Shown piece after piece: positions 1 through 21,047 of a stretch of DNA of 25,077 bases. Under the pieces are notes generated by a model. The model saw only the letters and a program-made list of their open reading frames with translations, did no database searches and was not told the origin of the DNA. Within the stretch, counting starts at the first letter, position 1. Every line of letters starts with the position of its first letter. The DNA lies in the IMG/VR virus record IMGVR_UViG_3300048861_000143, positions 1-25,077 of that record, one strand, 5' to 3'. A program made the position numbers and the translations under genes. The DNA comes from a virus.

Positions 1-215
1 TTGAATCGAGCGGAGTCCGGGTCCTTCAATCCGGCGGTCACAGCTTCCTGTCCTTGAGTGCGCCAGTCGCCCTCAACTACGCCTTCTCGCGCCGCGTCCA
101 TGAATTGCCAGTAGATCCGCTCAGACTCTTCGGGGTAGGCCGAAGCGGAGGACGCCATCGAAACTAAAACTAGCGCCGCTGCCAGGCCGATCCTGGCCGT
201 CTTGTCGTCAGGCAT
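1..215 (-). CDS. Partial (runs off left edge) exported hypothetical protein with LKDPDSARF motif
   Basis: Manual translation from ATG 215: MPDDKTARIGLAAALVLVSMASSASAYPEE...LKDPDSARF. GGAGG RBS upstream; signal-peptide-like hydrophobic stretch ending ASA. Not in ORF track. Confidence 0.75.
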   Translation of the reverse strand, partial: MPDDKTARIGLAAALVLVSMASSASAYPEESERIYWQFMDAAREGVVEGDWRTQGQEAVTAGLKDPDSARF

Positions 216-330
216 CGTTGATTACCTCCCCGTATGCGATCAGCCGCAACTCGGCATTCTCGAGCTTCCAGCGGTCGGCAAATCCGAGCAGTGGGTTGCG
301 CGTTGGCGCGGCCGTTTCAGGGTTGCTCAT
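208..330 (-). CDS. 40-aa hypothetical protein
   Basis: MSNPETAAPTRNPLLGFADRWKLENAELRLIAYGEVINDA*. Fills the gap exactly, overlaps both neighbours and carries the in-frame array motif. Confidence 0.6.
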   Translation of the reverse strand: MSNPETAAPTRNPLLGFADRWKLENAELRLIAYGEVINDA

Positions 331-511
331 CGTTGGTTTCCCCTATGCTTACGAAGCGGCCGCGCTCATCTCGCGCGACGACGATACCGGAGGCTCCACA
401 CGCCAGACATTCCTTTGGGGAGCCGTCGTCGGAGTAGTGGCCGAGTAGACCCGTCCCGCCACAGCTAGGGCACGGCACCAGGTTCCGGGCCGTTTTGTCC
501 CGGTCAGTCAT
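317..511 (-). CDS. Small zinc-finger protein (DnaJ-type CxxCxGxG pairs)
   Basis: CPSCGGTG and CLACGASG motifs; start/stop coupling with neighbours. Confidence 0.75.
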   Translation of the reverse strand: MTDRDKTARNLVPCPSCGGTGLLGHYSDDGSPKECLACGASGIVVARDERGRFVSIGETNDEQP

Positions 512-758
512 TGATTGCTCTCCGAATCGCTGCGGCGATGTTCTGCGCTGCGTGGGCCATGCTTGCGTGCGTGTGGCCCTTAGTCTGAAGACGTTCAGAC
601 ACCGCCATAGCTTCCCTTGACCCGTCGCGATTGCGTAAAACAGGGTCTGTTAGGATCGTGTCCTGCGCCAACAGGAAATTCTCGGTCGCGAACATATCCG
701 CGATGCAAGCGGCTTCCTCCAAGGCAGCGGCACGGGCCGTCTTGGATGTGTCAGTCAT
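504..758 (-). CDS. Hypothetical phage protein (84 aa)
   Basis: Start reassigned to ATG 758 (MTDTSKTAR; GGGAG RBS, ATGA overlap). AALEEAA...IAAAIR pattern is common in small phage proteins. Confidence 0.7.
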   Translation of the reverse strand: MTDTSKTARAAALEEAACIADMFATENFLLAQDTILTDPVLRNRDGSREAMAVSERLQTKGHTHASMAHAAQNIAAAIRRAIND

Positions 759-889
759 CGCTGACTCCCGTTCCGACACGCTGCGCACCAAATGCCGTGG
801 TGGTTCTGTATCGCCGGCTTCCCGCACCAAGGACAGGTGCAAGGAACACTAGTGAGGGCCGTTTTGTCCTGGCTGTCACTGCCTGACAT
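755..889 (-). CDS. 44-aa zinc-ribbon protein
   Basis: MSGSDSQDKTALTSVPCTCPWCGKPAIQNHHGIWCAACRNGSQR*. Two CxxC motifs; GAGGGAG RBS. Confidence 0.65.
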   Translation of the reverse strand: MSGSDSQDKTALTSVPCTCPWCGKPAIQNHHGIWCAACRNGSQR

Positions 890-1076
890 GCACGTCTCCC
901 TCATCATCCACCACGATCGGCGGGAGACCCTTCGAAGCCCGGATCTCGTTGCCCCGCTCCAGCGCGTGGTCATAGCAACGCTGTTCCCCGTCGATGCGAA
1001 TGCACATCTCCTCCTGGCATCCCGTGACATCGCAGCGCAGCTTGGCTGGGATCGCCGTTTGATCTTCAGCGGGCAT
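876..1076 (-). CDS. Small Cys/His protein (66 aa)
   Basis: Start reassigned to ATG 1076 (MPAEDQTAIP); CDVTGC...CYDH is a possible metal site. Confidence 0.65.
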   Translation of the reverse strand: MPAEDQTAIPAKLRCDVTGCQEEMCIRIDGEQRCYDHALERGNEIRASKGLPPIVVDDEGDVHVRQ

Positions 1077-1320
1077 CGCTTGCACCTTCCTGGTAAGCCG
1101 CATCCATCGCCTTCTCGATCTCGGCAGCAATAGGAGCGACTGACCCGAGACGGTAAGAGTCGAAGTATTCCAGGATGGAGAAAGCCACCTTCCATGATGC
1201 TTGGAAGTGACGCGGCTCGGCCGTTTCAGGATTGCCGCACAGGATGTCTTCGGCTGCCTCGACGCGGCGCCTCACGCTTTCCGGCACGGGCCGGGCCGTT
1301 TCGGATTTGCGTTCGCTCAT
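1066..1320 (-). CDS. Hypothetical protein (84 aa) containing two array motifs
   Basis: ORF track; GGAGG RBS; ETA motif near the N-terminus and again 25 codons later. Confidence 0.65.
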   Translation of the reverse strand: MSERKSETARPVPESVRRRVEAAEDILCGNPETAEPRHFQASWKVAFSILEYFDSYRLGSVAPIAAEIEKAMDAAYQEGASDAR

Positions 1321-1511
1321 TGCACCCTCCCGATACGCTTTGCTTCATCAAGCCATTCTTTGGCGGCTTTTCGGCAGTCAGCTTCGGCTGCTTCCTTGGT
1401 GTCGCCGTCCCCCATGCAGCCAGGAAGGTCAGGGGCGTAGGCTATGAAGCCATCCTCGTAGTTCAGGATGACGATCTGCGGCTCGGCCGTCTGGTTTTGG
1501 CTAACCGTCAT
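1317..1511 (-). CDS. hicB: HicB-like antitoxin domain protein (orphan)
   Basis: EDGFIAYAPDLPGCMGDGDTKEAAEADCRKAAKEWL matches the HicB N-terminal signature PDLPGCxxxGxTxEEA. No DNA-binding tail. Start 1511 (or 1517). Confidence 0.8.
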   Translation of the reverse strand: MTVSQNQTAEPQIVILNYEDGFIAYAPDLPGCMGDGDTKEAAEADCRKAAKEWLDEAKRIGRVQ

Positions 1512-1659
1512 TTTCATCCATCCCGTGCTCAAGCCGCCATGCGCGATCGTCCCACTCACAGGCTTCGGCTTCGCTGCCGACCGGAGACCTTCTGCTTTCC
1601 TCCGCCATGCGGCGGCAATAAGCGATACGTCTCTCGGTGGCCGTTTCAGGATTGGGCAT
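1501..1659 (-). CDS. 52-aa hypothetical protein
   Basis: Start reassigned to ATG 1659 (MPNPETATE) with GAAGGGA RBS. Confidence 0.6.
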   Translation of the reverse strand: MPNPETATERRIAYCRRMAEESRRSPVGSEAEACEWDDRAWRLEHGMDENDG

Positions 1660-1879
1660 TGTCGGTTCCCTTCTTCGGCTCACGCCAGAACACGGTGTAA
1701 TCGCGCCGCCCCAAGATCAGCGTTATGCAGGTCGGATAGAAGATCAGCGCGACATTCACTCGGATGCCAGAGACATCCCACCCAGCGTCGAGCGCGTCTG
1801 TCCGGCCGAACGTCAGCTTCCGCCATCGTCTCACCCATATAGCGCGCTTGGTTGGGGCCGTTTTGTCGTCAGCGGGCAT
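1646..1879 (-). CDS. 77-aa hypothetical protein
   Basis: Start reassigned to ATG 1879 (MPADDKTAP) with GGAGG RBS. Confidence 0.65.
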   Translation of the reverse strand: MPADDKTAPTKRAIWVRRWRKLTFGRTDALDAGWDVSGIRVNVALIFYPTCITLILGRRDYTVFWREPKKGTDNAQS

Positions 1880-2057
1880 TGATTGCCTCCAACCTTCCGA
1901 TTTCTGCCGCAGCTTCGGTGAAGAGCCTGTAGTGACACAGCAGATCGTGGAAGCTGATGTCGGGTGTCTTGGTAGAGCATGTGCAGCCCGCAATGCAGGC
2001 TCTGAACAGGCGCTCTTTCAGGGGCGGCACCGCCGCCGTTTCATTCTGCGCCATCAT
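1869..2057 (-). CDS. 62-aa Cys/His protein
   Basis: CxC...H...C pattern; GAGG RBS; coupled overlaps. Confidence 0.65.
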   Translation of the reverse strand: MMAQNETAAVPPLKERLFRACIAGCTCSTKTPDISFHDLLCHYRLFTEAAAEIGRLEAINAR

Positions 2058-2238
2058 TGGTTGCCTCGCTGTGCTTTGCGGCGTTGATGAGCCCTATCAA
2101 CTCGTTCGCCTCACTGATCGGCATGCAGTATTCCGTGCTGCCGATGGATATTCCGATCTCACCTGCCCGGATCACTCGGACGCGCTTGGTGTGCCTCCCT
2201 GCGTGGATTAGGCGGCCGGCCGTTTGATCAGCGGGCAT
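2041..2238 (-). CDS. 65-aa hypothetical protein
   Basis: ORF track; GGAGG RBS; QTA motif. Confidence 0.65.
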   Translation of the reverse strand: MPADQTAGRLIHAGRHTKRVRVIRAGEIGISIGSTEYCMPISEANELIGLINAAKHSEATNDGAE

Positions 2239-2437
2239 GGCTGCTTACAACCTCCAAAATAGACCTGCGCCAGACCGCCCTAGCACGTGTGGTCATATGC
2301 TGCCCCGACAGCGGGCGGACAGTTAGTTTCCCCCAACTGTCGCATTCGATGACAGCTTTGTAGTTCGGTCGGCCCTTCACCAACACGACATCTCCCTCGG
2401 TTGCCTTGTCCGTCGTCTGGTTCGTGTCAGAAGCCAT
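2228..2437 (-). CDS. 69-aa hypothetical protein, possible SH3/KOW-like barrel
   Basis: GDVVLVKG...AVI...LTVR pattern; GGAGG RBS; variant motif (QTT). Confidence 0.6.
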   Translation of the reverse strand: MASDTNQTTDKATEGDVVLVKGRPNYKAVIECDSWGKLTVRPLSGQHMTTRARAVWRRSILEVVSSHAR

Positions 2438-2597
2438 GTGCTTCCCTCCACTCGTCTACTAGCGCCAACGCAGCTTCAAAGGTGATCCGCCGTTGGGCGG
2501 CTAAGGTCTCGGCGGCAGCGCGCCTGTGCCCTACGCGAATGAGAGCGCAGATATCCCATGCTAAGCGTGGGGGTGCGGGTGCGTCAGGATTCGGCAT
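2427..2597 (-). CDS. 56-aa hypothetical protein
   Basis: MPNPDAPAPPRLAWDICALIRVGHRRAAAETLAAQRRITFEAALALVDEWREAHGF*. AGGAG RBS; overlaps the stop of 2584-3285. Not in ORF track. Confidence 0.6.
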   Translation of the reverse strand: MPNPDAPAPPRLAWDICALIRVGHRRAAAETLAAQRRITFEAALALVDEWREAHGF

Positions 2598-3285
2598 CGT
2601 TCTTTCTCCTTGCTCTGTTCCGCTCTGCCGTAGCTACGGCCAGGTCATGTTTCCTCTGCGCCTCGGGACGATGCCCCAGGTAGTTCTTGGCGGTGGCGTA
2701 GGCCATCGGGATCGTGACGGTGCTCCGTCCGATCTTCCGCTGCCTGCCAGCCCGCATCAGTAGCTCGGGGGTTGGCACGTCGCGTCGGACCCAATCAGCC
2801 CGGATCGACTCTGCGCGGCGTTGCGCATCCTCCATCCGGGCGCGCTTCGACGCCTCTGCTCCGACGCGCCTCCCACCGCCCGCCTCCGCGCTGCGCTTCT
2901 TGGCCAGGAATAGCTTAACGGCCTCGTCCAGCACGTCCGCTCCTGCGTCTGGCGGGATGCGCAACCCGGCATCCACGGCAATCACCGTAGCGGCTCGCGC
3001 ACGTGCCGCAGCCAGGCACGCGGTCAGGTCGGAAACATCCCAAGCCAGCACCGGAAGCGACGCCACGTAGATCGTCTCCCCGATCGGCTTGCGCCTGGTC
3101 TCCCTGAGCATAGAGGCCCTGGCCTCCATCGCCTCTCTAGACTGGCCGCGCCGCTTCGCTGGCACCAGCACGTCCCGGTAGATAGAAGCGTCAGGCCAGT
3201 CCGGAACAACCCCGGAAAGAAGGGCCTCCTGAGCCGGGACCGGCCACGTTTTGGCGATGTTCGAGATGTAAGCCCTGTTTCGCAT
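2584..3285 (-). CDS. Serine recombinase/resolvase-fold protein with degenerate catalytic motifs
   Basis: Motif order matches a resolvase N-domain: RAYIS (cf. GYARVS), AQEALL, IYRD, R..ML...R..GETIYVASLPVLAWD..DL (cf. GDxLVVxxLDRLxR..DL). Basic helical C-terminus. Confidence 0.6.
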   Translation of the reverse strand: MRNRAYISNIAKTWPVPAQEALLSGVVPDWPDASIYRDVLVPAKRRGQSREAMEARASMLRETRRKPIGETIYVASLPVLAWDVSDLTACLAAARARAATVIAVDAGLRIPPDAGADVLDEAVKLFLAKKRSAEAGGGRRVGAEASKRARMEDAQRRAESIRADWVRRDVPTPELLMRAGRQRKIGRSTVTIPMAYATAKNYLGHRPEAQRKHDLAVATAERNRARRKNDAES

Positions 3286-3309
3286 GGCATCCGTGCTTTT
3301 GTTGTTTAC

Positions 3310-3338
3310 AAGCTATCCTCCGTTGATGCAAAATGCAA
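3310..3338 (-). promoter_or_regulatory. Candidate sigma70 promoter for the leftward operon
   Basis: Minus strand TTGCAT (3338-3333), 17-nt spacer, TAGCTT (3315-3310), in the AT-richer divergent gap 3286-3376. Confidence 0.5.
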
Positions 3339-3376
3339 GGGACAAAAGAGAGCAGCCAAACGGACGGAGCGGACAG

Positions 3377-3553
3377 ATGGCACAGACCGACAAGCCGAAG
3401 CGCAGAGAGTTCCCTATGCTGTCTGAGAAAACGCTAAAGGACGGCAAGGTCGAGTGGCGTTTCATGATGGGCAATCGGGTCGTCAGTCGGCACGAGACGC
3501 GCGAGGCGGCGGATGCGGCATTCCGCGCCGCAAAGCCTCAGTATTTTCGCTGA
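3377..3553 (+). CDS. 58-aa basic hypothetical protein
   Basis: Start reassigned to ATG 3377 (MAQTDKPKRR) after the leader repeat; HETREAA motif. Confidence 0.7.
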   Translation: MAQTDKPKRREFPMLSEKTLKDGKVEWRFMMGNRVVSRHETREAADAAFRAAKPQYFR

Positions 3554-3571
3554 TCTGATACGGAGGTCGGA

Positions 3572-3742
3572 ATGGCGTTCCCTAATCGCGTATGGCCCTG
3601 GCGCCGCGAAGATGAGTTAGACGTGGAGGCTTTGCAGGAGCGCGTCCGCAGGTTGCGTGACTTGCTAGCAGAGGCAGCTGCAGCAACAACGTGGATGCCG
3701 GATGATTGGAAGCGCCGCGCCCGCGAGGCGCAGACCGAGTAG
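3572..3742 (+). CDS. 56-aa hypothetical (coiled-coil) protein
   Basis: GGAGG RBS; MAFPNRVWPWRREDELDVEALQERVRRLRDLLAEAAAATTWMPDDWKRRAREAQTE*. Not in ORF track. Confidence 0.7.
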   Translation: MAFPNRVWPWRREDELDVEALQERVRRLRDLLAEAAAATTWMPDDWKRRAREAQTE

Positions 3743-3803
3743 CACCAACAGACCAACCTTTCCCAGTTTGGAAAGGGTTCACCAAACGGACGGAGCGGAC
3801 AGG

Positions 3804-4061
3804 ATGGCGGAGCGAGTAACTGAGGACGACCTGAGGCTCGCGGCCGAGTGGTGCGACAATTACGAGGAGGGCGCGGACGGTGCCGACGAGATGATTCGTC
3901 TGCGGCGCGTCGCAAACTGGCTTCGTAAGATGGCTGACGATCGCCAGCGCGAAAGTCAGGTCCGCGCCGGAATGAAGCAGACTGGCGCTCCTAGAAAGGT
4001 TGTTGTTCGCGCTCTTGCAACGCTTGAAGCGAAGCGGCGAATGGAAGCGGAACGGGTTTGA
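3804..4061 (+). CDS. 85-aa hypothetical protein
   Basis: Start reassigned to ATG 3804 (MAERVTEDDL) after the leader repeat. Confidence 0.75.
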   Translation: MAERVTEDDLRLAAEWCDNYEEGADGADEMIRLRRVANWLRKMADDRQRESQVRAGMKQTGAPRKVVVRALATLEAKRRMEAERV

Positions 4062-4083
4062 GCGACCAAGCGGAGGAGAGAAG

Positions 4084-4530
4084 GTGGCCCTGCCATATGA
4101 GAATGCGACGTCAGGAAAGGCGGCTGTCGAGGACATGCAGAAAATCCTGCGCGCGTTCGGGGCCGCGTCCTTCGGTGTCATGGAGGACTTCCAGGCCGGC
4201 GAGGTGATCGTGCAGTTCCAGTGGCGCGAGCGGCGAGTGACCATCAAAGCAAGCGCGAAGGGCTACGCTGCGGCATGGCTACGCCATCACCCATGGTCCA
4301 GCCGCATGCGCAGCAGCAAGGTTGACCACGAACGCAAGGCACTGAAGCAGGCGCAGGTGTCCGTCTATTCGATCCTGAGAGACTGGATCAAAGGCCAGAT
4401 CACGGCGGTTGAGGTGGGCATGCTGTCGTTCGAGGGAGCGTTTCTCGGGCAGATCCTACTGCCGAGCGGGCAGACCGTGTTGGAGCGCGTCGAGTCAAGC
4501 GACATGCTTGCGCTGGCCGCTCCGGAATAG
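4084..4530 (+). CDS. Conserved hypothetical phage protein (148 aa)
   Basis: GTG 4084 after GGAGGAG. LPYENATSG...ILRDWIKGQITAVE.G..SFE.AFL is a recognisable phage family of unknown function. Confidence 0.8.
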   Translation: MALPYENATSGKAAVEDMQKILRAFGAASFGVMEDFQAGEVIVQFQWRERRVTIKASAKGYAAAWLRHHPWSSRMRSSKVDHERKALKQAQVSVYSILRDWIKGQITAVEVGMLSFEGAFLGQILLPSGQTVLERVESSDMLALAAPE

Positions 4531-4550
4531 CCGACAAAACGGAGGATAAA

Positions 4551-4700
4551 CTTTGGATGGCCCCGCGCCTGAAGTTGAGTAGGGCGTTGCCGTAAGGGCG
4601 GGGCGGCTGAATTTTCGGAGCATAGGGGATTCGTCCCGCTACGCCCCTTCTTAGGGGACGCCGCCGAGAAGAACGCAGCATGTGTGCTGAACATCCAAGG
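4551..4700 (+). ncRNA. Candidate structured RNA (multi-branched; strand assumed from operon)
   Basis: Six nested helices found by eye, including a closing 9-bp stem and a UUCG hairpin; only 9-12-codon ORFs follow the upstream RBS. Confidence 0.5.
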
Positions 4701-4718
4701 CAGACCCAATCGGAAGCA

Positions 4719-4939
4719 ATGATGAAGTTCGTTTTCAAGGCTGGCGAGCGGTGTAAGTTCGATCCGTCGTTGCGATACTTGATCGATGCGAACCCGACGG
4801 AAATGGGCTCGTTACCGCGACATGCCGAGTTGAGGATGGCTTGACCGTTCCTGCTGAGCACGCGGAGCGAGTAGCCGAAGCGCTAAACGCTGTGCTCGGC
4901 CACATCGATGTTCCGGTCAGCATGATATCGCGTCGCTGA
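4719..4939 (+). pseudogene. Possibly frameshifted small gene, or two tiny ORFs (4719-4844 and 4841-4939)
   Basis: ATG 4719 frame stops at 4844. A shifted frame reads VRSVVAILDRCEPDGNGLVTATCRVEDGLTVPAEHAERVAEALNAVLG to TGA 4939 but is preceded by TAA. Confidence 0.35.
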
Positions 4940-5118
4940 TGCAAACCGGAGGCACAGAATTGGGAGTCCGCCCTGACATACAGTTTGAAATCGATCAGGC
5001 GGCCGCAAAGGCAACCGCAATCCAGTCGATCCTCGATAACCCGATCCATCCGCCAGCCAAGGCGGGAAGCGCCCGAACCGGCATATGCGGCAGCCAATCC
5101 GGCGGACAGAGCAGACAG

Positions 5119-5289
5119 ATGGTAGCGGACACCCTGGCGGATCGCGTCAAGCGGGCGACCGTTGAGCTCAATGGCGCGATCGAGGCCGCGGTGCGGGCTG
5201 GCCTTATGGTCAAGCTCGAGGTTCTGACCGCGCAGTCGATGACTGGCGAAATGCCCGTGCTTACCGTCCGGGTATTTGAGCCGGCATAG
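5119..5289 (+). CDS. 56-aa hypothetical protein (frame also open from TTG 4960)
   Basis: ATG 5119 follows the diverged leader repeat; ELNGAIEAAVRAGLMVKLEV. An alternative start TTG 4960 has a GGAGG RBS. Confidence 0.65.
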   Translation: MVADTLADRVKRATVELNGAIEAAVRAGLMVKLEVLTAQSMTGEMPVLTVRVFEPA

Positions 5290-5340: not shown

Positions 5341-8300
5341 TCAGTTGAAGTGGATCGCAGCGGTAGGAACCGCGGCAAGGCTCTTTAGGTCGACCGTGCC
5401 GGCTCCAGCGAACGCCAGGGTGGTCCCGCCATGGCCGTCAGACCCGACCTGCATCGAAGCCCTCAGGCTCTTGTCGATGGTCAGGGAGTCGCCCTTTCCA
5501 GTGGAGAAGTCGTCCACCGTGAGCGCCCCTGCCCCGGCATGCACGACGTACGCCGCGGAGCCCGCGCCGCCCGTGACCTCCATCGGGCCAGTCCCAGCAG
5601 TGAACGTGTTCACGCCAGTATCGGCAGTGACGTTGGAAGCGCCGCTCCCTCCCGTGAGGGTGACGCTGGCCATTCCGACGAAGTGCAAGCTCTGCACCTG
5701 GCTCCCGAGAGTGATCGCAGCGGACCCTGCCCCGGTGAGGGCAAAGACGTCGCCGTTGGCGTGGACCACCCCGGCCGTGGCCCCGGAGATGCTCAAGGAC
5801 GTGGACGAGCTCACCATGTCGATCTCGGCCTGCCCAGGGGCTGGGACGGGCGTCGGCGCCGGGGTGGGTGCCGGAGTCGGAGCGGGGGTTGGAGCCGGCG
5901 TGGTGCTCGGCAGCGGGCTCACGGACGAGCCGTTGCCGCCTGCCCAGCCGTCGCCACCCCACTGCCACCACAGGTCCGACGAGTTCTCCTGCCAGACGTT
6001 TCCGTCCACGTAGGCGATCTCGGTCACGCCCGCGCTGTAGCCGGCTGCCGAGCCGTTCTGCTGGACAACGCCATTGGTGATCGTCCAGGCGTTCCCCGAG
6101 GCGTCCACGATCGAGGCAGAGGATCCGGCCAGGACGACGGTGTCGTTGGCCGACGCTTGCACTGGAACAGGCGAGGGTGTCGGAGCAGGGGTTGGCGCAG
6201 GCGTCGGGTTCGGGACCGGGCTTCCGGTAGCCGATGGGTCGGAGGACGGCGCTGCGTTCAGGGGCACGACCGGCGTGCCGCCGCCGTTGACGCTGTTCGG
6301 ACCCTGGTTGGTGAGGATCTGGACGGAGGCCATGATCTGAGCCCCGAACTGCTCCATACCCTGGATCAGCGGGTTGTCCTGCTCGACGAGCTGGTCGGTC
6401 TGGAAGATGACCCGCCCAGCACCGGCATCGCCGGAATCGCGGATCATCGCCCCGTGGTTCTGCAGCTCATGCCAAAGCATGTTCGCCCCGGCATTGGCTT
6501 TCACCGCGTCCGGCTCGACTGCACCCTGGGCGATACCCACCGTGACACCGTAGGGGATAGTCCCGGAATAGGTCCCGGGCCCGTATCCGTCCTCCTGGGT
6601 CTGCGGCCAGGCGTAGGGAGCCATGTCGTCGAAGTTGTCGCCCCACGACGCCAGCATCGAGAACGGCATCTCCATGCGCAGCATGTGGTCGATGTGCCCG
6701 GCCGCGAGATCCGACGCTCGCAGTGTGCCGACGCCCTGGTCCCAGTTGGACCCGTCAACCTGGATCCCGGAGCCGTAGTCGGACTCGCCGGACCCCTGGC
6801 TGACCGTGGCCGTGTTACTCCCGGTCCAAGAGAATCCGCCCATGCCGTACCAGGTGTGCGTGGTGGTGTCGTCCACCGAGAACGTCATGTCCTGGCCGCC
6901 AGCCGGGGCCGCGCCGACCGGGATGTGCACGTAGTAGACACCCGGCGTGCTACCTGAGGCCCCCGTGTTGGTCACGGTCACCAGAGGATCGCTGGCCGTG
7001 CCCGTCCAGATGTTCTCGTTGTAGTTGCCGTTCGTGTTGATCCAGACCGAGGCGTGCGCGAGCTGGCTGTTGTACGCCCACTGTGCGCCAGTCCCGAGCG
7101 GCAGGTTGAACACCGACGTCGAGGCGAACGGGATCTGAGATGGATCGCGGAGGCCGCCGGTCCCGGTGCCGCCGGTTGGAGCGGGCGTCGGCGTCGGGAC
7201 GGGCCCGCCGGAGGCCGGCAATGGGCTGGTCGAGGTGCCGTCGCCGGTTCCCCATCCAGTCCCGCCATCCGACTTCCACCACAGGCCGCTAGCGTTCTCC
7301 TGCCAAACCGCCCCCTTGACGTAGGCGATCTCGGCGACGTTGGCCGTGTACCCAGCCGCCGAGCCGTCCCGAAGCACGGTGCCGCCGCCGCTGATCGACC
7401 AGGTGTGGCCGCTCGCATCGACAATCGTGGCGCTCGTTCCGGCCATGACGACCGTGCCATCGCTCGAGGCCGAAGCCGGCGCGGGGGAAGGAGTCGGTGT
7501 GGGAGTCGGGCTGCCAGTGGCTCCGCCGGTGCTCTGGCTGTAGAGCCAGCTGAGCGGAGAGTCAGGGCCGGTCTTCGTGTAGTAGGTGTCCCACACGTCG
7601 TGGCCGAGACTCGCGTCCTCAGTGTAGCGCATGTCGCCGCCAATCGCCTGCGACTGCGCGTAGACCGTGCGGTCGGTGGCAAGCGGGACCTGCGTGTCCT
7701 GGCCGCCGTGGATCGCCCAGTAGGGGACGTTCTTCAGCAGCGCCGCCATCTGCGTGGGGTCCTGACCGTAGTCAGCACCCGCGAGCGCGAGCCCGGCCGC
7801 GAAGATGTGCCCCTCGGTCCCGGTCAGGGCGTTGTACTTGATCAGCATGTCTTCGGTGCCGATCCCGCCCATGCTGTTGCCGGTCACGTAGACCCGGCTG
7901 GGATCGACCGAGTACTGCGCCATGACCTGCTTGAGCGCCGCGATCGCGTTCGTCTCGCCCGCGGTGTCAGCAGTGGACACGCCGCCCCAATTGATCGTGT
8001 TTCCGCCCGGGTCAGACGTCTGGTCCAGGAGCGGAGCTACGATGATCGAGGGGTGGTCTGTCCGGAAGGTCGGGGTGTTGAACCACGCGTCGATCTGCTG
8101 CTGTAGCGCTTCAGGCCCGTAGGACCCGTTGTCCAGCTGGTGCAGATACAGCGTGGTCGCATACGCCGTGTGCGCGTCGTAGCCGGCCGGCAGCAGGACC
8201 ATGTACTGCATGCCGTTGACCGAGGCGATCTGCCACTGTCCGGGCGAAGCGTCGTCTCCGGTTGTCACCGGGGGCGGTGTCGGCGTGGGGGTTGAGCCGC

Positions 8301-9744
8301 CAGATAGCGGGCTCACGGACGAGCCGTTGCCGCCGGCCCATCCGCCGCCGCTCCACTGCCACCACAGGCCGCTGGCGTTCTCCTGCCACACGGCGCCGCC
8401 GACGTAGGCGAGTTGCGTGACGTTGGCGCTGTAGCCGGCCGGCGCCCCATTCTCGAGCACGGCGCCATTGGCGATGGTCCAGGCGTTCCCGGATCCGTCG
8501 ATGATCGCGCCGGACGCGCCGGCCGCGAGCACGGTGTTATCCGGAGATGCGGGCGATCCGGGGGTGGGAGCCGGGGTAGGCGTGGGAGTGCCGCCGCTCG
8601 TCGCGCCGCGGAACAGCATCTGATCCCACATTGCATGCTGGCCGCTGCGCAGCGACCCGTCGTCGTTCAGGGTGCCGTCCGGGTACTGCCCGTCGAGGTT
8701 TCCCCAGGCCCACCAGTCACCCGACATCGGCTGCTGGTTGCCCGAGAACGTCGGGCCGCCGGCGGACCCATCCTTGCCGTTCATGTAATCGAGCAGGGAT
8801 TGGGCCCAGGCCTGCTCGCCCCCGAGATTGCCTCCGGCGCTGTCCGCCGTGCCATCCAGAGATCCGCCCATCTCGCCAATCCACACCGGCGCGATGTTCT
8901 GGGCCTCGAGGTAGCCGAAGGCCTTGTTCATGTCGGCCACGTTCTCGGCACCCGCGTCGGGGGTGAACCCCGCGATGGATGCCGGGTAGTCGTGCACCGA
9001 ATAGACGACCTTGTTGGCGACCGGCAGGCTCACCGGATCCTTGCCGGCGAGGCTGAGATCGCCCCACGGCGCGGGGCTGCCGCCGCCGCCCGCTGCGGCG
9101 TTCCCGCCGTAGTTCTGCGGGCCCTCGGCGATGATCAGCGGCCCAGGGTTCACGGCCTGGATGGCCGCCCCGACCTTGCTGTAGATCATCTGGAGGTCGG
9201 TATTAGGGTCTCCGGTCCCCCAGGTGGATGATCCGGAATACTCGAGAGGCTCATTGTCGAGGTCGAACCCGACAACGGTGCTGTTCCCGGCATAGTGCTG
9301 GGCGACGGTCACCCAGTTCTGCTGGAACTGCTGAAGGCTGACAGTGCCTCGGACACCGGCGCCATTGGTGCCGTCCGAAGCGCCGCCCACGTCATATGGC
9401 AGGCCGTTGCGCTGCTGGGAGCCGTAGCCGTCGGCGGGAGTTCCGACCTCGTTCGTGTGGTGGTCGAGAATGACCTTGATGCCGGCCGCCGAAGCTGCAG
9501 ACACGATCTGGTCGATGCGCTGGAGATCGTTGCCCATGGAGGCATCGACCCAGGACACGCGCACCGTGTTGAACCCGGCCGCCTTGATGGCATTGATGGT
9601 GCTGGGGATATCGCCGAAATCTTGGTTCCACCCGACCGAGGCGATGCGGACCGGGTTGCCGTTACTGTCGACGATCTGTGCGCCGGAGGTACTCAGATAG
9701 CCTGCAGGCAGCAGTTGAGGGCTGCCCGAGCTGGAACTGGACAT
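5341..9744 (-). CDS. Modular GH5 (cellulase-family) glycoside hydrolase with alpha/beta-hydrolase domain, three Trp-rich repeats, an unknown domain and an RTX/T1SS-like C-terminus
   Basis: GH5: NTVRV, VILDHH, FDLDNEP, SVHDYP, WIGEMG, WWAW. Esterase: TGNSMGG, HGGQD, HDVW. Pro/Thr linkers. C-terminal LTVDDF..G.GDSL...IHFN; no signal peptide. Confidence 0.9.
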   Translation of the reverse strand: MSSSSSGSPQLLPAGYLSTSGAQIVDSNGNPVRIASVGWNQDFGDIPSTINAIKAAGFNTVRVSWVDASMGNDLQRIDQIVSAASAAGIKVILDHHTNEVGTPADGYGSQQRNGLPYDVGGASDGTNGAGVRGTVSLQQFQQNWVTVAQHYAGNSTVVGFDLDNEPLEYSGSSTWGTGDPNTDLQMIYSKVGAAIQAVNPGPLIIAEGPQNYGGNAAAGGGGSPAPWGDLSLAGKDPVSLPVANKVVYSVHDYPASIAGFTPDAGAENVADMNKAFGYLEAQNIAPVWIGEMGGSLDGTADSAGGNLGGEQAWAQSLLDYMNGKDGSAGGPTFSGNQQPMSGDWWAWGNLDGQYPDGTLNDDGSLRSGQHAMWDQMLFRGATSGGTPTPTPAPTPGSPASPDNTVLAAGASGAIIDGSGNAWTIANGAVLENGAPAGYSANVTQLAYVGGAVWQENASGLWWQWSGGGWAGGNGSSVSPLSGGSTPTPTPPPVTTGDDASPGQWQIASVNGMQYMVLLPAGYDAHTAYATTLYLHQLDNGSYGPEALQQQIDAWFNTPTFRTDHPSIIVAPLLDQTSDPGGNTINWGGVSTADTAGETNAIAALKQVMAQYSVDPSRVYVTGNSMGGIGTEDMLIKYNALTGTEGHIFAAGLALAGADYGQDPTQMAALLKNVPYWAIHGGQDTQVPLATDRTVYAQSQAIGGDMRYTEDASLGHDVWDTYYTKTGPDSPLSWLYSQSTGGATGSPTPTPTPSPAPASASSDGTVVMAGTSATIVDASGHTWSISGGGTVLRDGSAAGYTANVAEIAYVKGAVWQENASGLWWKSDGGTGWGTGDGTSTSPLPASGGPVPTPTPAPTGGTGTGGLRDPSQIPFASTSVFNLPLGTGAQWAYNSQLAHASVWINTNGNYNENIWTGTASDPLVTVTNTGASGSTPGVYYVHIPVGAAPAGGQDMTFSVDDTTTHTWYGMGGFSWTGSNTATVSQGSGESDYGSGIQVDGSNWDQGVGTLRASDLAAGHIDHMLRMEMPFSMLASWGDNFDDMAPYAWPQTQEDGYGPGTYSGTIPYGVTVGIAQGAVEPDAVKANAGANMLWHELQNHGAMIRDSGDAGAGRVIFQTDQLVEQDNPLIQGMEQFGAQIMASVQILTNQGPNSVNGGGTPVVPLNAAPSSDPSATGSPVPNPTPAPTPAPTPSPVPVQASANDTVVLAGSSASIVDASGNAWTITNGVVQQNGSAAGYSAGVTEIAYVDGNVWQENSSDLWWQWGGDGWAGGNGSSVSPLPSTTPAPTPAPTPAPTPAPTPVPAPGQAEIDMVSSSTSLSISGATAGVVHANGDVFALTGAGSAAITLGSQVQSLHFVGMASVTLTGGSGASNVTADTGVNTFTAGTGPMEVTGGAGSAAYVVHAGAGALTVDDFSTGKGDSLTIDKSLRASMQVGSDGHGGTTLAFAGAGTVDLKSLAAVPTAAIHFN
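5836..5898 (-). repeat. Pro/Ala/Thr linker tandem repeat (PAPT)n
   Basis: Degenerate 12-nt period; similar PT linkers near 22095-22160, 23272-23363 and 24150-24195. Confidence 0.8.
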
Positions 9745-9820
9745 TCAATTTCCTGATTTGGGGGCCGCCGTGACGCGGCCCACAGTTCGTGGATCGCTGC
9801 GACCAGTCCCCCGCGCGCCG

Positions 9821-10279
9821 TTACGGCGCGGAAGGAGGTGGCTGCGCCGCCTGGAGCAGCGCTGGGAGGGCGGCCGAGAGAATGCTCAGGGCAGTCACGC
9901 TAGCCTCTGCGGCAGGCGGCAGTGCGCCTGGCGGCAGGGCTGCCATGATGATCTGAACGTCCCGAAGCACGTCTGCGGCGACCTGCGGTAGGTCGGTCGG
10001 GGCCTTGGTCGGGATTGCTGCTACCAAAGCTTCGGCGGCGTCCTCCGTGGCGCTGATGCTGGCCGCAACGTCGGGCGGCACTGGATTGGTCGCCATGTAG
10101 GCGATGGTCGCACCCTCAATTACGGCGAGTGCCGCGGCGGCTTGGATATGGACCTGCACCGGAGAAATCCGGATCGGGACCAATACCGGGAGAGGGGCTA
10201 CCGTCGGTGCCGGGTTTGTGTCGGCGCACGACGACAGGCCGAGCAGCGCGCACGCTGCTGCGGCAATGGTGAGGCGCAT
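9821..10279 (-). CDS. Lipoprotein, spanin candidate
   Basis: Signal peptide with lipobox LSSC; Pro-rich linker; hydrophobic C-terminal segment; last gene of the lysis cluster; AAGGA RBS. Confidence 0.6.
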   Translation of the reverse strand: MRLTIAAAACALLGLSSCADTNPAPTVAPLPVLVPIRISPVQVHIQAAAALAVIEGATIAYMATNPVPPDVAASISATEDAAEALVAAIPTKAPTDLPQVAADVLRDVQIIMAALPPGALPPAAEASVTALSILSAALPALLQAAQPPPSAP

Positions 10280-10289
10280 GAGTTCGTCC

Positions 10290-10610
10290 TTAGACGGCGC
10301 TGGGGGGAGTTGTGGGCGCGGGAGCCGCAGCGGCAGTCGGAGCCGTCGGCGCTGGCGGAGGCACCACGGCAGCGAGCGCGACGATCACCCTCTGTAGCCA
10401 GGTCACGAGGGACGGCTGAAGGATGTTCTGCGCGTTCGCCACGTTGCCCGCGGCGACGCTGACTAGCTTCCGCAGAGGAAGCCAGTGCGATCCGGGAGCA
10501 GGCTGCGGCAGGAGGGCGTCAATCGCGCTGGCAAGCATGTGCAGCGCGAGCAACAGCGGAAGCCACCTGTCCAGGCCGAGAGCCTGCAGGAAGCTTTGGA
10601 TCGGATCCAT
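10290..10610 (-). CDS. Small membrane protein, holin candidate
   Basis: Start ATG 10610 (MDPIQ) with GAAAGG RBS; TM segment WLPLLLALHMLASAIDALL; lysis context. Confidence 0.55.
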   Translation of the reverse strand: MDPIQSFLQALGLDRWLPLLLALHMLASAIDALLPQPAPGSHWLPLRKLVSVAAGNVANAQNILQPSLVTWLQRVIVALAAVVPPPAPTAPTAAAAPAPTTPPSAV

Positions 10611-10620
10611 GATAGGCCTT

Positions 10621-11253
10621 TCAGGGAGGGGGGGAGGCAAGCTCCGCAAGCAACCGGCCGTAGCCGGTGCAGGAGTGGCACTCGAGGGGATCGAACAGGT
10701 CGGGGTGTCCGACTTCGATCAGCGGCAGCCGGACGTGCTCGTAGAGGAGCGGCACGTCGGGCACCGGGTCGTTCCCGTTCCGGTATTGCCGGATCGGAAT
10801 AGGCGCCAGGAGTTGGCGAAGTGCTGACCCGCCAACGCGGGGCGCGCCGAAGGTCACCAGGGCTTCGGGAGGATTGCCGGCCAAAGTCATGAGGCCGGCC
10901 GTGATGATCGCCAGCGCTCCGCCGAGGGAGTGCCCGGTAAGGATCACTCGTCGGCCAGCGATGAGCGGCTGGAGAGCGGGCCAGAGGTCCATGCCGCCAT
11001 CGAGGAATCCCCGATGGCACCACCCCATTCCCTCATGCCTGACGGGCCACGCTTCGAAGTCGCGAAGCCAGTCGGCCCATGAGCTCGGGACCGTGCCGCG
11101 GAACGCCACCACGGCAACGCCTGGAGCCTGGGTGATCACGGCGTGCACGTCGCCTGCGACGACGGTGGCCTGGGCGCCGTAGGAGCCAGCGGCGAACACC
11201 GCTAGCTCTGCGTCAATCGGCGGCCAAGCGGGCCACGGGGGCGGCGGGCTCAC
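10621..11253 (-). CDS. Class 3 lipase family protein
   Basis: VAFRGT, HRGF, LTGHSLGGALA, TFGAPRVG, NDPVPDVP, HS...Y. GTG 11253 overlaps the endolysin stop (GTGA). Confidence 0.9.
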   Translation of the reverse strand: MSPPPPWPAWPPIDAELAVFAAGSYGAQATVVAGDVHAVITQAPGVAVVAFRGTVPSSWADWLRDFEAWPVRHEGMGWCHRGFLDGGMDLWPALQPLIAGRRVILTGHSLGGALAIITAGLMTLAGNPPEALVTFGAPRVGGSALRQLLAPIPIRQYRNGNDPVPDVPLLYEHVRLPLIEVGHPDLFDPLECHSCTGYGRLLAELASPPP

Positions 11254-11783
11254 GCCCGTGCCGCAGCAGCCATGGCATGCGCCGCTGCCGCCCGCCGCTC
11301 CACTCGAGCAAGCCAGCCGTTCCCGAACAGAGGGAACCCGGAGCATTGTCGGTAGAATGAGGTCTGCACCAGCCTGAGGTTGCTGATCAGAACGCCAGGG
11401 GCCATCGACTTAACCGCCGCGATGGTGATCGGGCCGATCTGCCCATCATCCTTTACGAGCAGTGCCCTCTGCAGCTCCTTGGCGGCAACGGTCTCGCCGG
11501 CAGTCACGCCGAAATCGAACACCATCAGGTCAACGCCAGCGGGAAGGCTGTCACCAGCGACTGTGTCGTAGTACCAGGCTCGATAGATGGCCTTCGCCTC
11601 TTCTATCGACATGGCCTTCATCTCGTCATCGGTGACCGGGCAACGACGCCACCGGGCCAAGGTGGCATGGGTGATGCCGTACGCGGTGGCACCTCCTGCG
11701 TCACCTGGCGTCTTGTGGAATGGCTGACCGTCTTGAAGAGGACTCAATGTGAAGTTAACGCAGGCATCGAAATTGCCGAGCAT
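11250..11783 (-). CDS. Endolysin, GH108 family with C-terminal peptidoglycan-binding domain
   Basis: D.GGAT.YGIT, EAKAIYR.WY, LPAGVDLMVFDFGV, LQRAL..DGQIGPIT, FG.GWLARV. Confidence 0.9.
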   Translation of the reverse strand: MLGNFDACVNFTLSPLQDGQPFHKTPGDAGGATAYGITHATLARWRRCPVTDDEMKAMSIEEAKAIYRAWYYDTVAGDSLPAGVDLMVFDFGVTAGETVAAKELQRALLVKDDGQIGPITIAAVKSMAPGVLISNLRLVQTSFYRQCSGFPLFGNGWLARVERRAAAAHAMAAAARA

Positions 11784-11801
11784 TTGGATGGTCTCCGGGG
11801 T

Positions 11802-12155
11802 TCACCGGATCCGCTTGATGGTGACACGCGTGACGCCACGCTGCTCGAACTTGAGCGCCCGCGCTGCGGCTAGGCTCAGGTCGATCGTGCGATGGGTCCA
11901 AAACGCGGGGCCGCGGTCGGTGATTGTGACGGTGATGCTGCGACCATTGGAGGCGTTCGTTACCCTGACGGCGGAGCCCAGGGGATAGCGCCAACTTGCA
12001 GCGGTGTAGGTGCGTGGGTTGAACTTGCGGCCGTTCGCCATGAGGCGCCCGGCCAGTTCGTAGCCATACCAGCTGGCTACGTCTTTTGATTCTGCGGCGG
12101 AAGCGAGTGCCATAGAAGCGGCTGCGATCAACATGATCGCACGGCGATGAAGCAT
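11802..12155 (-). CDS. rlpA: RlpA-like double-psi beta-barrel lytic transglycosylase with signal peptide
   Basis: ASWYG, ANG..F, TAA, PLGS.VRVTN..NGRS, DRGP, IDLS.AAA. Start ATG 12155 with GGAG RBS. Confidence 0.88.
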   Translation of the reverse strand: MLHRRAIMLIAAASMALASAAESKDVASWYGYELAGRLMANGRKFNPRTYTAASWRYPLGSAVRVTNASNGRSITVTITDRGPAFWTHRTIDLSLAAARALKFEQRGVTRVTIKRIR

Positions 12156-12160
12156 CTCCA

Positions 12161-12195
12161 CTCCAATAAGAAAGGCGCCTCTCGGCGCCCTGTGT
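12161..12195 (-). promoter_or_regulatory. Hairpin plus U-rich tract plus RBS element (terminator-like)
   Basis: Minus strand ACACAGGGCGCC-GAGA-GGCGCCTTTCTTATTGGAG upstream of the rlpA-like gene. Confidence 0.55.
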
Positions 12196-12249
12196 GAGGG
12201 TTGATGCTGCTTCAACCAAATCCGCAACATTCAGTTGCGGAGGATACTG

Positions 12250-13308: not shown

Positions 13309-13332
13309 TCATAGTGATCGCCGCGCGATCGG

Positions 13333-13704: not shown

Positions 13705-13785
13705 GGTCTCCACCTCCTCTGAACATGGTTGCGGAGAGCGTGGGCCGCGCAGGGCATCCACAATGCGCGAAAGCATGCCGGCGGC

Positions 13786-14298: not shown

Positions 14299-14311
14299 TG
14301 TAGTTTCCCAA

Positions 14312-15829: not shown

Positions 15830-15844
15830 CCGCGCGGCTCCAAG

Positions 15845-15869
15845 AAAAAAGGGCGCCGTGTGGCGCCCT
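15845..15869 (-). terminator. Intrinsic terminator-like hairpin within the late operon
   Basis: AGGGCGCC-4nt-GGCGCCCT stem followed by a U-tract on the minus strand, just before the tail-fibre RBS. Confidence 0.7.
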
Positions 15870-15903
15870 GTGTAAGAACGAGATTGATCAGGCGTCGCCG
15901 TCG

Positions 15904-21024: not shown

Positions 21025-21047
21025 ATTTTCAGTCCTGGATTGGAGGA

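Follow-up and report, generated by a model that had tools for sequence, protein, structure and literature searches.

PeSL (promoter-early stem-loop) modules populate the hyperplastic regions of T4-type phages, where they have been proposed to mediate modular shuffling through recombination between copies (PMC2839356, PMC4122927). The locus described here, a gene array in an uncultured soil phage, resembles these regions in that short repeated modules lie between small orphan genes of a variable early region, and in that relatives differ in their genes but retain the modules. However, a PeSL is an intergenic promoter plus terminator outside coding sequence, whereas the array has no intergenic space and its module is translated in two frames, supplying a Shine-Dalgarno (SD) sequence, an ATG, the stop of the upstream gene and an in-frame leader. 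The array genes overlap and no minus-strand promoter-like site was found inside the array, which sets it apart from the PeSL class; circles and strain differences have been demonstrated for PeSLs. The SAS/ESAS of Cluster K mycobacteriophages is a 13-bp element that includes the SD sequence and lies 3-7 bp upstream of the start codon (PMC3203893). In common with SAS, the repeats described here are asymmetric, share one orientation, occur in 11-19 copies, and are restricted to non-structural genes, of different families, at whose start codons (mostly ATG) they are found, the upstream stop codon sometimes lying within the repeat. By contrast, the best-conserved word here belongs to the ORF itself, 15-27 nt past the ATG, where it is locked in frame and specifies Thr-Ala or Thr-Thr. 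With an SD-spacer region that is only semi-conserved and a conservation peak downstream of the ATG, the repeat does not belong to the SAS class.

The polymorphic IP locus of T4 reportedly encodes internal proteins with capsid-targeting-sequence leaders; these leaders are defined peptide signals, present on a few packaged proteins and cut by the prohead protease. Both are hypervariable phage loci in which unrelated small ORFs carry a leader of ~10 residues that is conserved at the DNA level too, but here 15-17 consecutive genes have the leader, one of them ahead of a secretion signal, and no protease site or link to packaging is evident. The stoperators of Cluster A mycobacteriophages are sites of 13-14 bp that are distributed genome-wide, are mostly intergenic and not frame-locked, and have a known cognate repressor. 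They share with the array many short asymmetric sites in one orientation relative to transcription, a location at gene boundaries and a phage-specific consensus; unlike stoperators, the word is frame-locked inside the ORFs of one operon. As in integrons, one-directional, promoterless and mostly orphan genes sit beside a recombinase-like gene that is divergent from a second block of genes, and a short conserved word is present at each unit boundary. Unlike in integrons, the protein at the head of the array is predicted to adopt a serine-resolvase fold rather than the tyrosine-recombinase fold of IntI, the overlapping genes contain no attC hairpins and leave no room for them, and the boundary is inside the ORF and frame-locked. 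No IntI-type tyrosine recombinase is encoded next to the array, the only PF00589 match in the genome being located at 84.8-85.4 kb, ~80 kb away, which places the array outside the integrons, as the original prediction had anticipated in describing it as lacking attC hairpins and IntI.

We analyzed a window of 25,077 nt (positions 1 to 25,077 of the record IMGVR_UViG_3300048861_000143), at the start of which a minus-strand operon of 17 small overlapping genes follows a 233-aa head gene. The ends of the contig overlap by 157 bp with 1 mismatch. Because the contig closes on itself, the array runs past base 1 and continues at contig 149,393-148,723, where three further genes with the word are found. 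The features within the window are as follows.

3286..3376: intergenic region between the head gene and a divergent rightward array, presumed from the ORF layout to be a promoter region
2584..3285, minus strand: head gene, 233 aa, resolvase fold predicted by AlphaFold/Foldseek, no Pfam match
2427..2597, minus strand: gene 1, 56 aa, sole junction without the word; its leader overlaps the head-gene stop by 14 nt
2228..2437, minus strand: gene 2, 69 aa, Thr-Thr variant of the word at 2411-2419
2041..2238, minus strand: gene 3, 65 aa, word at 2218-2226
1869..2057, minus strand: gene 4, 62 aa, word at 2034-2042
1646..1879, minus strand: gene 5, 77 aa, word at 1856-1864; junction matches contig 149,203 at 33/35 positions
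1501..1659, minus strand: gene 6, 52 aa, word at 1639-1647; junction has a paralogue at contig 143,080, on the other strand
1317..1511, minus strand: gene 7, 64 aa, word at 1485-1493; HicB-like/UPF0150 fold behind an 11-residue leader
1066..1320, minus strand: gene 8, 84 aa, word at 1294-1302, with a second, internal word at 1219-1227
876..1076, minus strand: gene 9, 66 aa, word at 1053-1061
755..889, minus strand: gene 10, 44 aa, zinc-ribbon-like, word at 857-865
504..758, minus strand: gene 11, 84 aa, word at 735-743
317..511, minus strand: gene 12, 64 aa, CxxC zinc ribbon, word at 488-496
208..330, minus strand: gene 13, 40 aa, word at 310-318
1..215, continuing across the join to contig 149,412, minus strand: gene 14, 148 aa, word at 195-203

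The operon is read as one of small accessory genes, probably expressed early. One weak σ70-like match was detected in the intergenic region, at 3305-3334 on the plus strand; the terminator-like matches in the array were few and mostly on the antisense strand.

The word is present in frame, at codons 6-10 and as xAN-ACG-GCS, in 15 of the 17 array genes, the other two being gene 2, which has the Thr-Thr variant (QTT), and gene 1, which has no word. The original prediction described 12 consecutive small genes that open with the in-frame word, at a spacing of 75-247 bp, together with the QTT variant and one internal copy; all of these were recovered, and the array proved larger. In its strict form, VARACGGCS, the word occurs 13 times on the minus strand between positions 195 and 2226 and three times in the other 23 kb of the window. 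The expectation for the whole window and both strands was 4.4 +/- 2.3, and none of 100 shuffles reached the observed total of 16, consistent with the predicted excess over chance. All 13 copies are in frame; 12 belong to consecutive genes that have an SD sequence and an ATG start, and lie at codons 6-10 of these, and the 13th is the one internal to gene 8. In one gene beyond the join AAT precedes ACG, which falls outside the strict VAR definition. Across the 150-kb genome, the combination of word, ATG and SD was found nowhere else. Codon choice within the word was strikingly uniform: the Thr codon was ACG in 16 of 16 copies, against a genome usage of 38% (P about 2e-7), the Ala codon was GCC in 13 of 16, and an A-ending Lys, Glu or Gln codon preceded Thr in 12 of 15, such codons making up 15-25% of usage.

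Alignment of the junctions revealed that the repeated unit is the entire ~35-nt junction, which consists of the SD sequence, a spacer, the ATG, the leader with the embedded upstream TGA and then the word. An SD sequence is located 5-12 nt ahead of each ATG, and neighboring genes overlap by 4-17 nt at 16 of the 17 junctions, the remaining one being an 18-nt gap. These stop-start overlaps fit an ordinary translationally coupled operon, but the conserved in-frame word and the paralogy of the modules exceed it. In agreement with the prediction that the upstream stop lies shortly before the word, it was found within the next leader at 16 of 17 junctions (15 TGA, 1 TAG), 1-17 nt before ACG. The best pairwise alignments extended from the SD sequence (-11 to -17) to +21 to +25, the last base of the word. 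Nine junction pairs scored above every shuffle, and two non-adjacent junctions preceding unrelated genes (those of gene 5 and of contig 149,203) were identical at 33 of 35 positions. Column conservation fell to background immediately after ACGGCC, and the same edge was seen in the related elements L061 and L065, supporting the view that the word is the 3′ edge of a unit common to unrelated ORFs. A cassette that had recently moved by crossover at a single core would be expected to extend the similarity into the upstream gene body; the repeat is instead bounded on both sides, from SD to word, which counts against the proposed crossover core. The module is read in two frames, as the tail of the upstream gene and as the downstream leader, and the SD-spacer string recurs in L061 in a different upstream frame, indicating conservation at the DNA level. 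The word lies at no constant distance from the ATG (codons 6-10) or from the stop (1-17 nt), and it is therefore unlikely that the word itself acts in initiation or coupling in a way that depends on spacing.

Junctions were also found outside the regular series. Inside gene 8 lies a relic junction in which 16 nt, the embedded TGA among them, are the same as in the gene 6 junction. On the opposite strand, at contig 143,080, a satellite mini-array has a junction that is identical to that of gene 6 at 32 of 37 positions and ends at the word; it holds a 16-codon near-empty unit, has no head gene at that location, and uses ACC with GCA or GCC while keeping Thr-Ala. The relic junction, the mini-array and the near-empty unit are traces of module turnover.

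The junction appears to serve as a standard adaptor by which accessory genes are exchanged and expressed. The explanation that we favor, and to which we give about an even chance, is that such portable junction adaptors spread by homology-driven recombination in a hypervariable small-gene operon. Each gene is joined to the next by a paralogous ~35-nt module with a polar leader of 5-9 codons, which carries the upstream TGA in the +1 frame and ends in Thr-Ala (Thr-Thr in relatives). Any ORF placed behind the module would be provided with a ribosome site, with a start that is tightly coupled to the stop before it, and with a short N-terminal leader that is disordered. Modules may be copied among unrelated genes and between related phages, with recombination resolving inside the module; the copying would be driven by homology or microhomology and could be performed, for example, by the phage's own ERF-type annealing protein (encoded at 102.6-103.7 kb) or by host RecA. 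Such recombination would homogenize codons within an array and permit in-frame swaps of gene bodies. Against this explanation, the word is conserved about as well as the ATG and better than the rest of the module, whose spacer positions drift, and plain linker homology does not predict this; in addition, exact identity between junctions extends over no more than 12-17 nt, a short stretch for homologous recombination.

Relatives were collected through the head gene, whose protein family comprises 312 clusters. Seven related elements carry arrays of the same layout behind a homologous head gene, the head proteins being 42-67% identical across arrays, and no near-identical relative was found in the search. 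In the closest relative, L063, homology stops at the TGA of the head gene, and the position at which gene 1 lacks the word reads Asp-Thr-Thr. Related arrays keep the junction layout but differ completely in gene content. The gene bodies of this array are not related to one another, and different arrays share only one 84-aa family; gene 11 is the only array gene with homologues found in other elements. As predicted, homologues of this 84-aa gene have different leaders, identity beginning right after the word, and they also have different neighbors, contrary to the constancy of leader and neighbors that the original prediction had named as evidence against itself. The 12-nt word plus Ile codon of gene 9 was also found on an unrelated gene in L054.

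The dipeptide T[TA] was present in the first 22 residues of 28 of 32 array genes behind homologous head genes and of 14 of 93 other genes at the same loci (P = 1.6e-13), the corresponding counts in this genome being 16/17 for the array and 18/156 for other genes. T[TA] leaders are present too in some other small-gene operons of the relatives. In the related arrays the word encodes Thr-Thr, with ACG, ACC, ACA or ACT as the Thr codon. Codon choice is uniform inside any one array but not from one array to another, ACG being used in 16/16 cases here and 8/10 in L061, and ACC in 8/11 in L065 and 4/4 in L064, every array lying above local usage. Variation between arrays falls on third codon positions and Thr is kept, which indicates that Thr-[Thr/Ala] is conserved at the amino-acid or codon level and that the DNA is homogenized locally. 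The original prediction had read the invariant ACG as a DNA-level constraint and had named synonymous variation as the sign of a peptide signal instead: uniformity holds in this array, but ACC, ACA and ACT occur elsewhere, and the satellite copy also departs from ACG, so that the prediction is refuted in part by its own criterion. Under the adaptor explanation, the terminal Thr-[Thr/Ala] would be selected family-wide at the amino-acid or codon level and would therefore have a putative function in its own right, either in the product or in the course of translation.

That the junctions have no function, being decaying relics of the serial duplication of a founder start or a by-product of stop/start overlap in a GC-rich genome, was already disfavored, and we regard it as highly improbable. 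The embedded TGA does force part of the leader (xxT-GAx yields Asp or Glu), and A-rich early codons are common in GC-rich genomes. However, the layout persists at 42-67% head-protein identity with otherwise unrelated cassettes, the spacer drifts but the word is conserved to the same degree as the ATG, and T[TA] is much rarer in control genes of the same loci (14/93 versus 28/32).

The uniformity of synonymous codons (ACG 16/16, GCC 13/16, A-ending preceding codon 12/15) could also be accounted for if the word were a cis-acting DNA or mRNA site through which one regulator switches the whole operon, the frame being merely inherited with the duplicated leader. In the DNA form, the head protein, bearing an HTH, would be the regulator and the sites would be stoperator-like; in the mRNA form, a translational repressor or nuclease would act as in SAS or RegA/RegB. 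The single orientation, the presence of one site per gene in one operon only, the phage-specific variant of the word and, in the structural model of the head protein, a predicted C-terminal helical domain behind a long E-like helix are in line with such a site. By contrast, all copies occupy a single reading frame in every array examined, differences between arrays concentrate at wobble positions with Thr kept, and the satellite copies of this genome, written with ACC plus GCA/GCC, still encode Thr-Ala. The spacing between the word and the SD sequence, ATG or stop is not fixed, no Rfam match was found, and no conserved pairing partner was seen. A cis-acting site is thus distinctly unlikely in our estimation.

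The head gene was found at the front of the array in all seven relatives with readable DNA, an association that is partly by construction, since the relatives were collected through it. The head protein had no Pfam match, including none to Resolvase PF00239 at E <= 0.1; PF00239 was not matched in a six-frame search of the whole genome, and a profile search of PDB sequences with the head protein found no recombinase. Its AlphaFold model (pLDDT 82) combines a beta-alpha core with a helix of 45 residues and a small domain at the C-terminus, and the top 10 Foldseek PDB matches were Tn3 and gamma-delta resolvase (E 3e-4 to 8e-3, prob 1.0, TM 0.34-0.65). The model thus predicts a resolvase-like catalytic-domain fold with the E-helix and C-terminal DNA-binding-domain arrangement. 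In an alignment of eight members, the Ser at the end of strand 1 (Y-x-S-N-I) was invariant (8/8), but Tyr rather than Arg occupied position -2 of this Ser, and the position of the DRLxR motif read L-A-W-D, with no Arg. The idea of an array without a recombinase is mistaken in spirit: the head gene has a predicted resolvase fold, whereas canonical catalytic Arg motifs and a Resolvase profile match are absent.

These features bear on the possibility that the array is a site-specific, frame-preserving cassette system, in which the resolvase-fold head protein would recombine at the word and excise or insert units in frame, each unit consisting of a headless ORF, stop, SD, ATG and leader, and the word co-evolving with the recombinase. 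A resolvase-fold gene with an invariant strand-1 Ser at the head of the array in all seven readable relatives would be expected of such a system, as would a word that is uniform per array and differs where head proteins are 42-67% identical, similarity that ends exactly at the word, complete turnover of gene content, and the near-empty unit and relic junction. We nevertheless consider it quite improbable. Besides the missing Pfam Resolvase match, the lack of Arg at -2 and of DRLxR in all eight aligned members, the lack of sequence-level matches to solved recombinases and the partly constructed head-gene association, the word is 6-8 bp, asymmetric and without a flanking dyad, whereas the sites of known serine recombinases are dyads of about 28-40 bp to which a dimer binds. 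Paralogous junctions stop upstream at the SD sequence, without the upstream body, changes between arrays fall at third codon positions with Thr retained, modules are also present in the satellite mini-array, which has no head gene, and relatives have T[TA] leaders in some of their other small-gene operons.

Retention of Thr-[Thr/Ala] across ACG, ACC, ACA and ACT arrays, together with the three-base periodicity of the variation, is what would be expected if the leader were mainly an N-terminal peptide tag ending in Thr-[Thr/Ala] and read on all products by a common partner, such as a protease or unfoldase that times turnover, an enzyme of processing, or a route for packaging or export, with the uniformity of the DNA resulting from recent copying. 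Pro-Glu-Thr-Thr/Ala, Ser-Glu-Thr-Thr/Ala and Asp-Lys/Gln-Thr-Ala also recur in different phages. Two residues, however, hold very little information, the residue before Thr varies (K, E, Q, N, S, P, D or G), peptide selection leaves the codon uniformity within arrays unexplained, and no candidate reader protein was identified. Moreover, in gene 14, for which no homologues were found, the leader precedes a predicted Sec-type signal peptide and would be lost from the product upon cleavage, which argues for a generic adaptor and not for a tag on the mature protein. We therefore judge a peptide tag unlikely. Four leaders read Thr-Ala-Arg, which we take to resemble the ClpX N-terminal motif of lambda O and Dps, a lead only.

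The window covers the first 25 kb of a virus record of 149.8 kb, which is rated 97% complete. Contig positions 149,644–149,800 repeat window positions 1–157 with one mismatch (157 bp), leaving 149,643 unique bp; the record, though classed as linear, is therefore circular or terminally redundant, and the array and its gene 14 cross the join. Elsewhere in the record, PHROGs matches identified a major head protein, a portal, a large terminase and a DnaB helicase. The array consists of 17 small genes (40–148 aa) on the minus strand, extending from 2597 across base 1 as far as contig 148,723, behind a 233-aa gene at 2584–3285, which we call the head gene. All 17 start with ATG preceded by a Shine–Dalgarno sequence (SD), and at 16 of the 17 junctions the neighbours overlap by 4–17 nt, the upstream stop (15 TGA, 1 TAG) lying within the first codons of the next gene. 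Because no promoter-like site was found on the coding strand within the array, we infer that it is transcribed as a single operon from the divergent region 3286–3376. Its products are mostly orphans; two or three are zinc ribbons, a single one matches HicB-like/UPF0150 weakly, and another has a Sec-type signal peptide. The signal peptide, a hydrophobic core followed by Ala-x-Ala, comes directly after a 7-residue leader in the gene 14 product (148 aa; window 1–215 (−) plus 14412–14798 (−) of L007, another stretch of the same record), for which no homologue was found among 5.8 billion clustered proteins. Just past the distal end of the array lies one further gene, whose position there means that the array may be truncated:

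L007:11518–13044 (contig 146,518–148,044), plus strand, IS-type transposase gene (PHROG 506)

A frame-locked word at the start of consecutive genes had been predicted from the window alone, and the array proved larger than was then stated, continuing across the contig join. The word xAN-ACG-GCS, encoding Thr-Ala at the end of a short leader, was in frame at codons 6–10 of 15 of the 17 genes, three genes across the join included; of the other two, one reads Gln-Thr-Thr and one lacks the word. VARACGGCS occurred in 13 minus-strand copies within 195–2226 versus 3 across the other 23 kb; by chance, 4.4 would be expected for the whole window and both strands. A sixteenth copy of the word sits inside gene 1066–1320, and outside the array no site in the 150 kb combined the word with an in-frame ATG and an SD. 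Codon choice was strongly skewed: Thr was ACG in 16/16 copies, compared with 38% of Thr codons genome-wide (P about 2e-7), Ala was GCC in 13/16, and an A-ending Lys, Glu or Gln codon preceded Thr in 12/15, as against 15–25% of usage for such codons.

We then read seven related contigs carrying a head-gene homologue (L059 and L061–L066), with gene starts as called by the source and two corrected by eye. Head protein homologues are 42–67% identical, and their profile family comprises 312 protein clusters, all uncultured. Where same-strand genes lay behind the head gene in these relatives, they formed overlapping small-gene arrays like the one here, with leaders ending in Thr-Thr or occasionally Thr-Ala.

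Words in the arrays of related elements
L061, 11 genes, word mostly xxR-ACG-ACM
L065, 11 genes, word mostly ACC-ACC
L064, Thr codon ACC
L066, word ACA-ACC
L062, L059 and L063, word ACG-ACC or ACG-ACA

Thr-[Thr/Ala] was present within 22 residues in 28/32 array genes versus 14/93 other genes of the same loci (P = 1.6e-13), and a few further operons of small genes in the relatives also had such leaders. The layout thus recurs behind at least eight head-gene homologues, an association that is biased because the relatives were found through the head gene. Within arrays, uniformity of the Thr codon was significant (P = 0.002 for L061, 0.017 for L065 and 0.02 for L064), and the codon differed between arrays. 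A DNA or RNA binding site would account for uniformity within an array but leaves unexplained both the strict frame and the retention of Thr-[Thr/Ala]; we consider this reading quite unlikely. A peptide tag explains frame and retention, and is nevertheless unlikely in our view, as it does not explain the uniform DNA within arrays and fits badly with a leader placed ahead of a cleavable signal peptide and with conservation of just two residues.

Several more specific roles for the word were rejected. The genome has no tRNA genes, which excludes an operon dependent on a phage tRNA-Thr reading ACG, and a restriction or methylation site (GGCC in the word) is incompatible with the ACGACA or ACCACC of relatives, which lack GGCC. 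An antisense terminator, in which the complement of the word and the A-rich leader would look like the end of a stem with a T-tract after it, was dropped because a hairpin was present at only 4/16 junctions and ACC-type arrays cannot form one. Pairing with the SD or anti-SD, +1 frameshifting or hopping between neighbouring frames, and a match to an integron core site were considered by eye and dropped; complementarity is not conserved, and the sense codons that immediately precede the stop vary between junctions. Rfam matched no known RNA. The four hairpins with T-tracts, which might stop antisense transcription at these places though not generally, are as follows:

window 1291–1304, plus strand, antisense terminator-like hairpin and T-tract
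window 1478–1490, plus strand, the same
window 2023–2037, plus strand, the same
L007:14169–14182, plus strand, the same

To delimit the repeated unit, we anchored junction columns on the word. Conservation peaked at A-[AG]-ACGGCC and fell to background level from the very next base; upstream of the word, conserved columns marked the SD, some spacer positions, the ATG and the TGA embedded in the leader. In local alignments of all junction pairs, similar blocks started at the SD (−11 to −17) and ended with the final base of the word, at +21 to +25. Nine pairs scored above every shuffled control, the best being the junctions at 1879 and contig 149,203, which are identical at 33/35 positions while the genes before and behind them are both unrelated. 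All-against-all BLASTP detected no paralogy among the gene bodies. The leaders fall into families (Pro-Ala-Asp-Asp-Lys-Thr-Ala, Asn-Pro-Glu-Thr-Ala and Thr-Asp-x-x-Lys-Thr-Ala), and rare synonymous codons common to their members argue for descent from common copies rather than convergence. Since similarity ends at the SD, this module of about 35 nt is not just the end piece of some larger mobile unit. Junction similarity in L061 and L065 likewise stops at the word, a stretch of SD and spacer matches L061 at 17/19 positions with a different upstream frame there, and an identical 12-nt word plus Ile codon is found on unrelated genes in this genome and in another element, L054. The internal copy of the word at 1219–1227 (relic region 1219–1290 (−)) has 16 bases, TGA included, identical to the junction of gene 1501–1659; it would be a former junction at which two small ORFs were fused by a frame change. 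Modules also occur away from the main array, from which the following locus is separated by two transposase-like genes:

L007:7718–8292 (contig 142,718–143,292), plus strand (opposite to the array), satellite mini-array of two genes with leaders of main-array families

One satellite junction matches that of gene 1501–1659 at 32/37 positions, again ending at the word, and between the two genes lies a 16-codon ORF made up of hardly more than one start module leading into the next. The satellite words are ACC-GCA and ACC-GCC, so that Thr-Ala is retained and the DNA is changed. The original prediction had read the invariant ACG as a DNA-level constraint; uniformity holds in this array, but the Thr codon varies among the arrays of relatives and is ACC in the satellites.

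Gene bodies were unrelated between arrays except for one 84-aa family, that of gene 504–758, with seven homologues. Their protein and DNA identity starts just after the word and ends at the C-terminal tail, whereas leader, upstream gene and downstream gene were all different in 4/4 contexts read. Differing leaders with identity from the motif onward had been anticipated and were seen here; the pattern is also expected from any shuffling of overlapping genes, and at about 70% identity the homologues cannot tell whether the leader travels with the preceding or the following body. Genome and viral scans with this family each returned one distant prophage-like locus in which the motif was absent. 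No match was obtained by phage-record BLAST with the array region and head protein, by scanning IMG/VR for the head protein, for its alignment and for the exact leader pattern, or by a JGI metagenome scan for relatives; capsid relatives were at most 51% identical and lay on contigs of 5–54 kb. In L062, the first gene behind the head gene (1534–2010 (+)) encodes a T5orf172/MUG113 (GIY-YIG-like) protein, starts with GTG and lacks a leader; perhaps it inserted into the first junction as a homing-endonuclease-type gene.

The strictly conserved Thr-[Thr/Ala] signal adjoins an unannotated family with a predicted resolvase fold. The head protein matched no Pfam family, neither it nor the genome matched a Resolvase profile, and a sequence-level PDB search with it returned nothing. 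In a model built from eight sequences (pLDDT 82), a beta-alpha core is accompanied by a helix of 45 residues and a small C-terminal domain; the PDB entries matching it best were Tn3 and gamma-delta resolvase (E 3e-4, prob 1.0). Strand 1 ends in an invariant Ser, but the Arg normally two residues before it and the Asp-Arg-x-x-Arg cluster are missing; like the lack of profile and PDB sequence matches, this speaks against an active recombinase. The family may act as a regulator or may be a recombinase of a new kind. The genome's only PF00589 tyrosine recombinase (71 bits) is encoded 80 kb from the array, at contig 84,426–85,433 (+), in the stretch L067, and an ERF-type annealing protein is also encoded.

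Three facts require a joint explanation: DNA uniformity within arrays, a fixed frame with Thr-[Thr/Ala] kept despite codon changes between arrays and in satellites, and modules bounded at the SD and the word. That the word has no function is very improbable. The word had been proposed as the crossover core of an integron-like system; in our amended form of this idea, the head protein would be an unconventional recombinase that moves headless ORF units in frame at Thr-Ala or Thr-Thr. A single-core crossover agrees with the uniformity and with the 3′ edge, but explains neither the 5′ edge nor the wobble-position pattern, and its candidate enzyme lacks canonical catalytic residues; we regard such a system as more doubtful than either a tag or a binding site. 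If true, it would be a protein-coding, frame-preserving counterpart of integrons, carried by soil phages and phage-plasmids of one family, in which the site of recombination would also supply two codons of each product. All three facts are covered by a portable junction adaptor, a reading of the sequence to which we give about an even chance. The adaptor would be copied and homogenised through recombination inside the module, as paralogy of the junctions suggests, and its terminal Thr-[Thr/Ala] would be separately selected at the codon or peptide level.

In Botstein-type modular theory, phages were expected to have linker sequences through which genes can be exchanged; to our knowledge, clear cases are rare, and PeSLs are the best one. 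The common capsid-targeting leader of T4 internal proteins and stoperators are also among the nearest described systems, together with the PeSL modules of T4-type phages (PMC2839356, PMC4122927) and the start-associated sequences of Cluster K mycobacteriophages (PMC3203893). The array showed none of the defining features compared for these systems and for integrons: unlike all five, its repeat is translated in a locked frame and unites stop, SD, start and leader. A limited literature search found no description of this layout. The linker here lies inside genes, not between them, one unit of about 35 nt ending one ORF, starting the next and donating its first residues, so that any ORF lying downstream of it would be expressed and coupled. 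It would be a natural counterpart to the standardised bicistronic junctions of synthetic biology and offers a testable route for the in-frame gain of orphan accessory genes, probably for host takeover or anti-defence.

The divergent array at 3356–5289 (+) has its own standard junction, a stop followed by a C-rich/AAAC word and then the SD, and relatives have a similar string, TGA-ACCCCAA-n-C-n-GGAG, ahead of starts among the leftward genes of L059, L061 and L062; standardised junctions therefore seem general to early operons of this group. Beyond it, three giant ORFs of 1,467, 1,706 and about 1,600 aa occupy 5341–25031 (−), with GH5 cellulase, multiple FN3, GH16 and esterase-like domains, and a class-3 lipase gene lies at 10621–11346; these are probably virion-borne glycan or lipid depolymerases.
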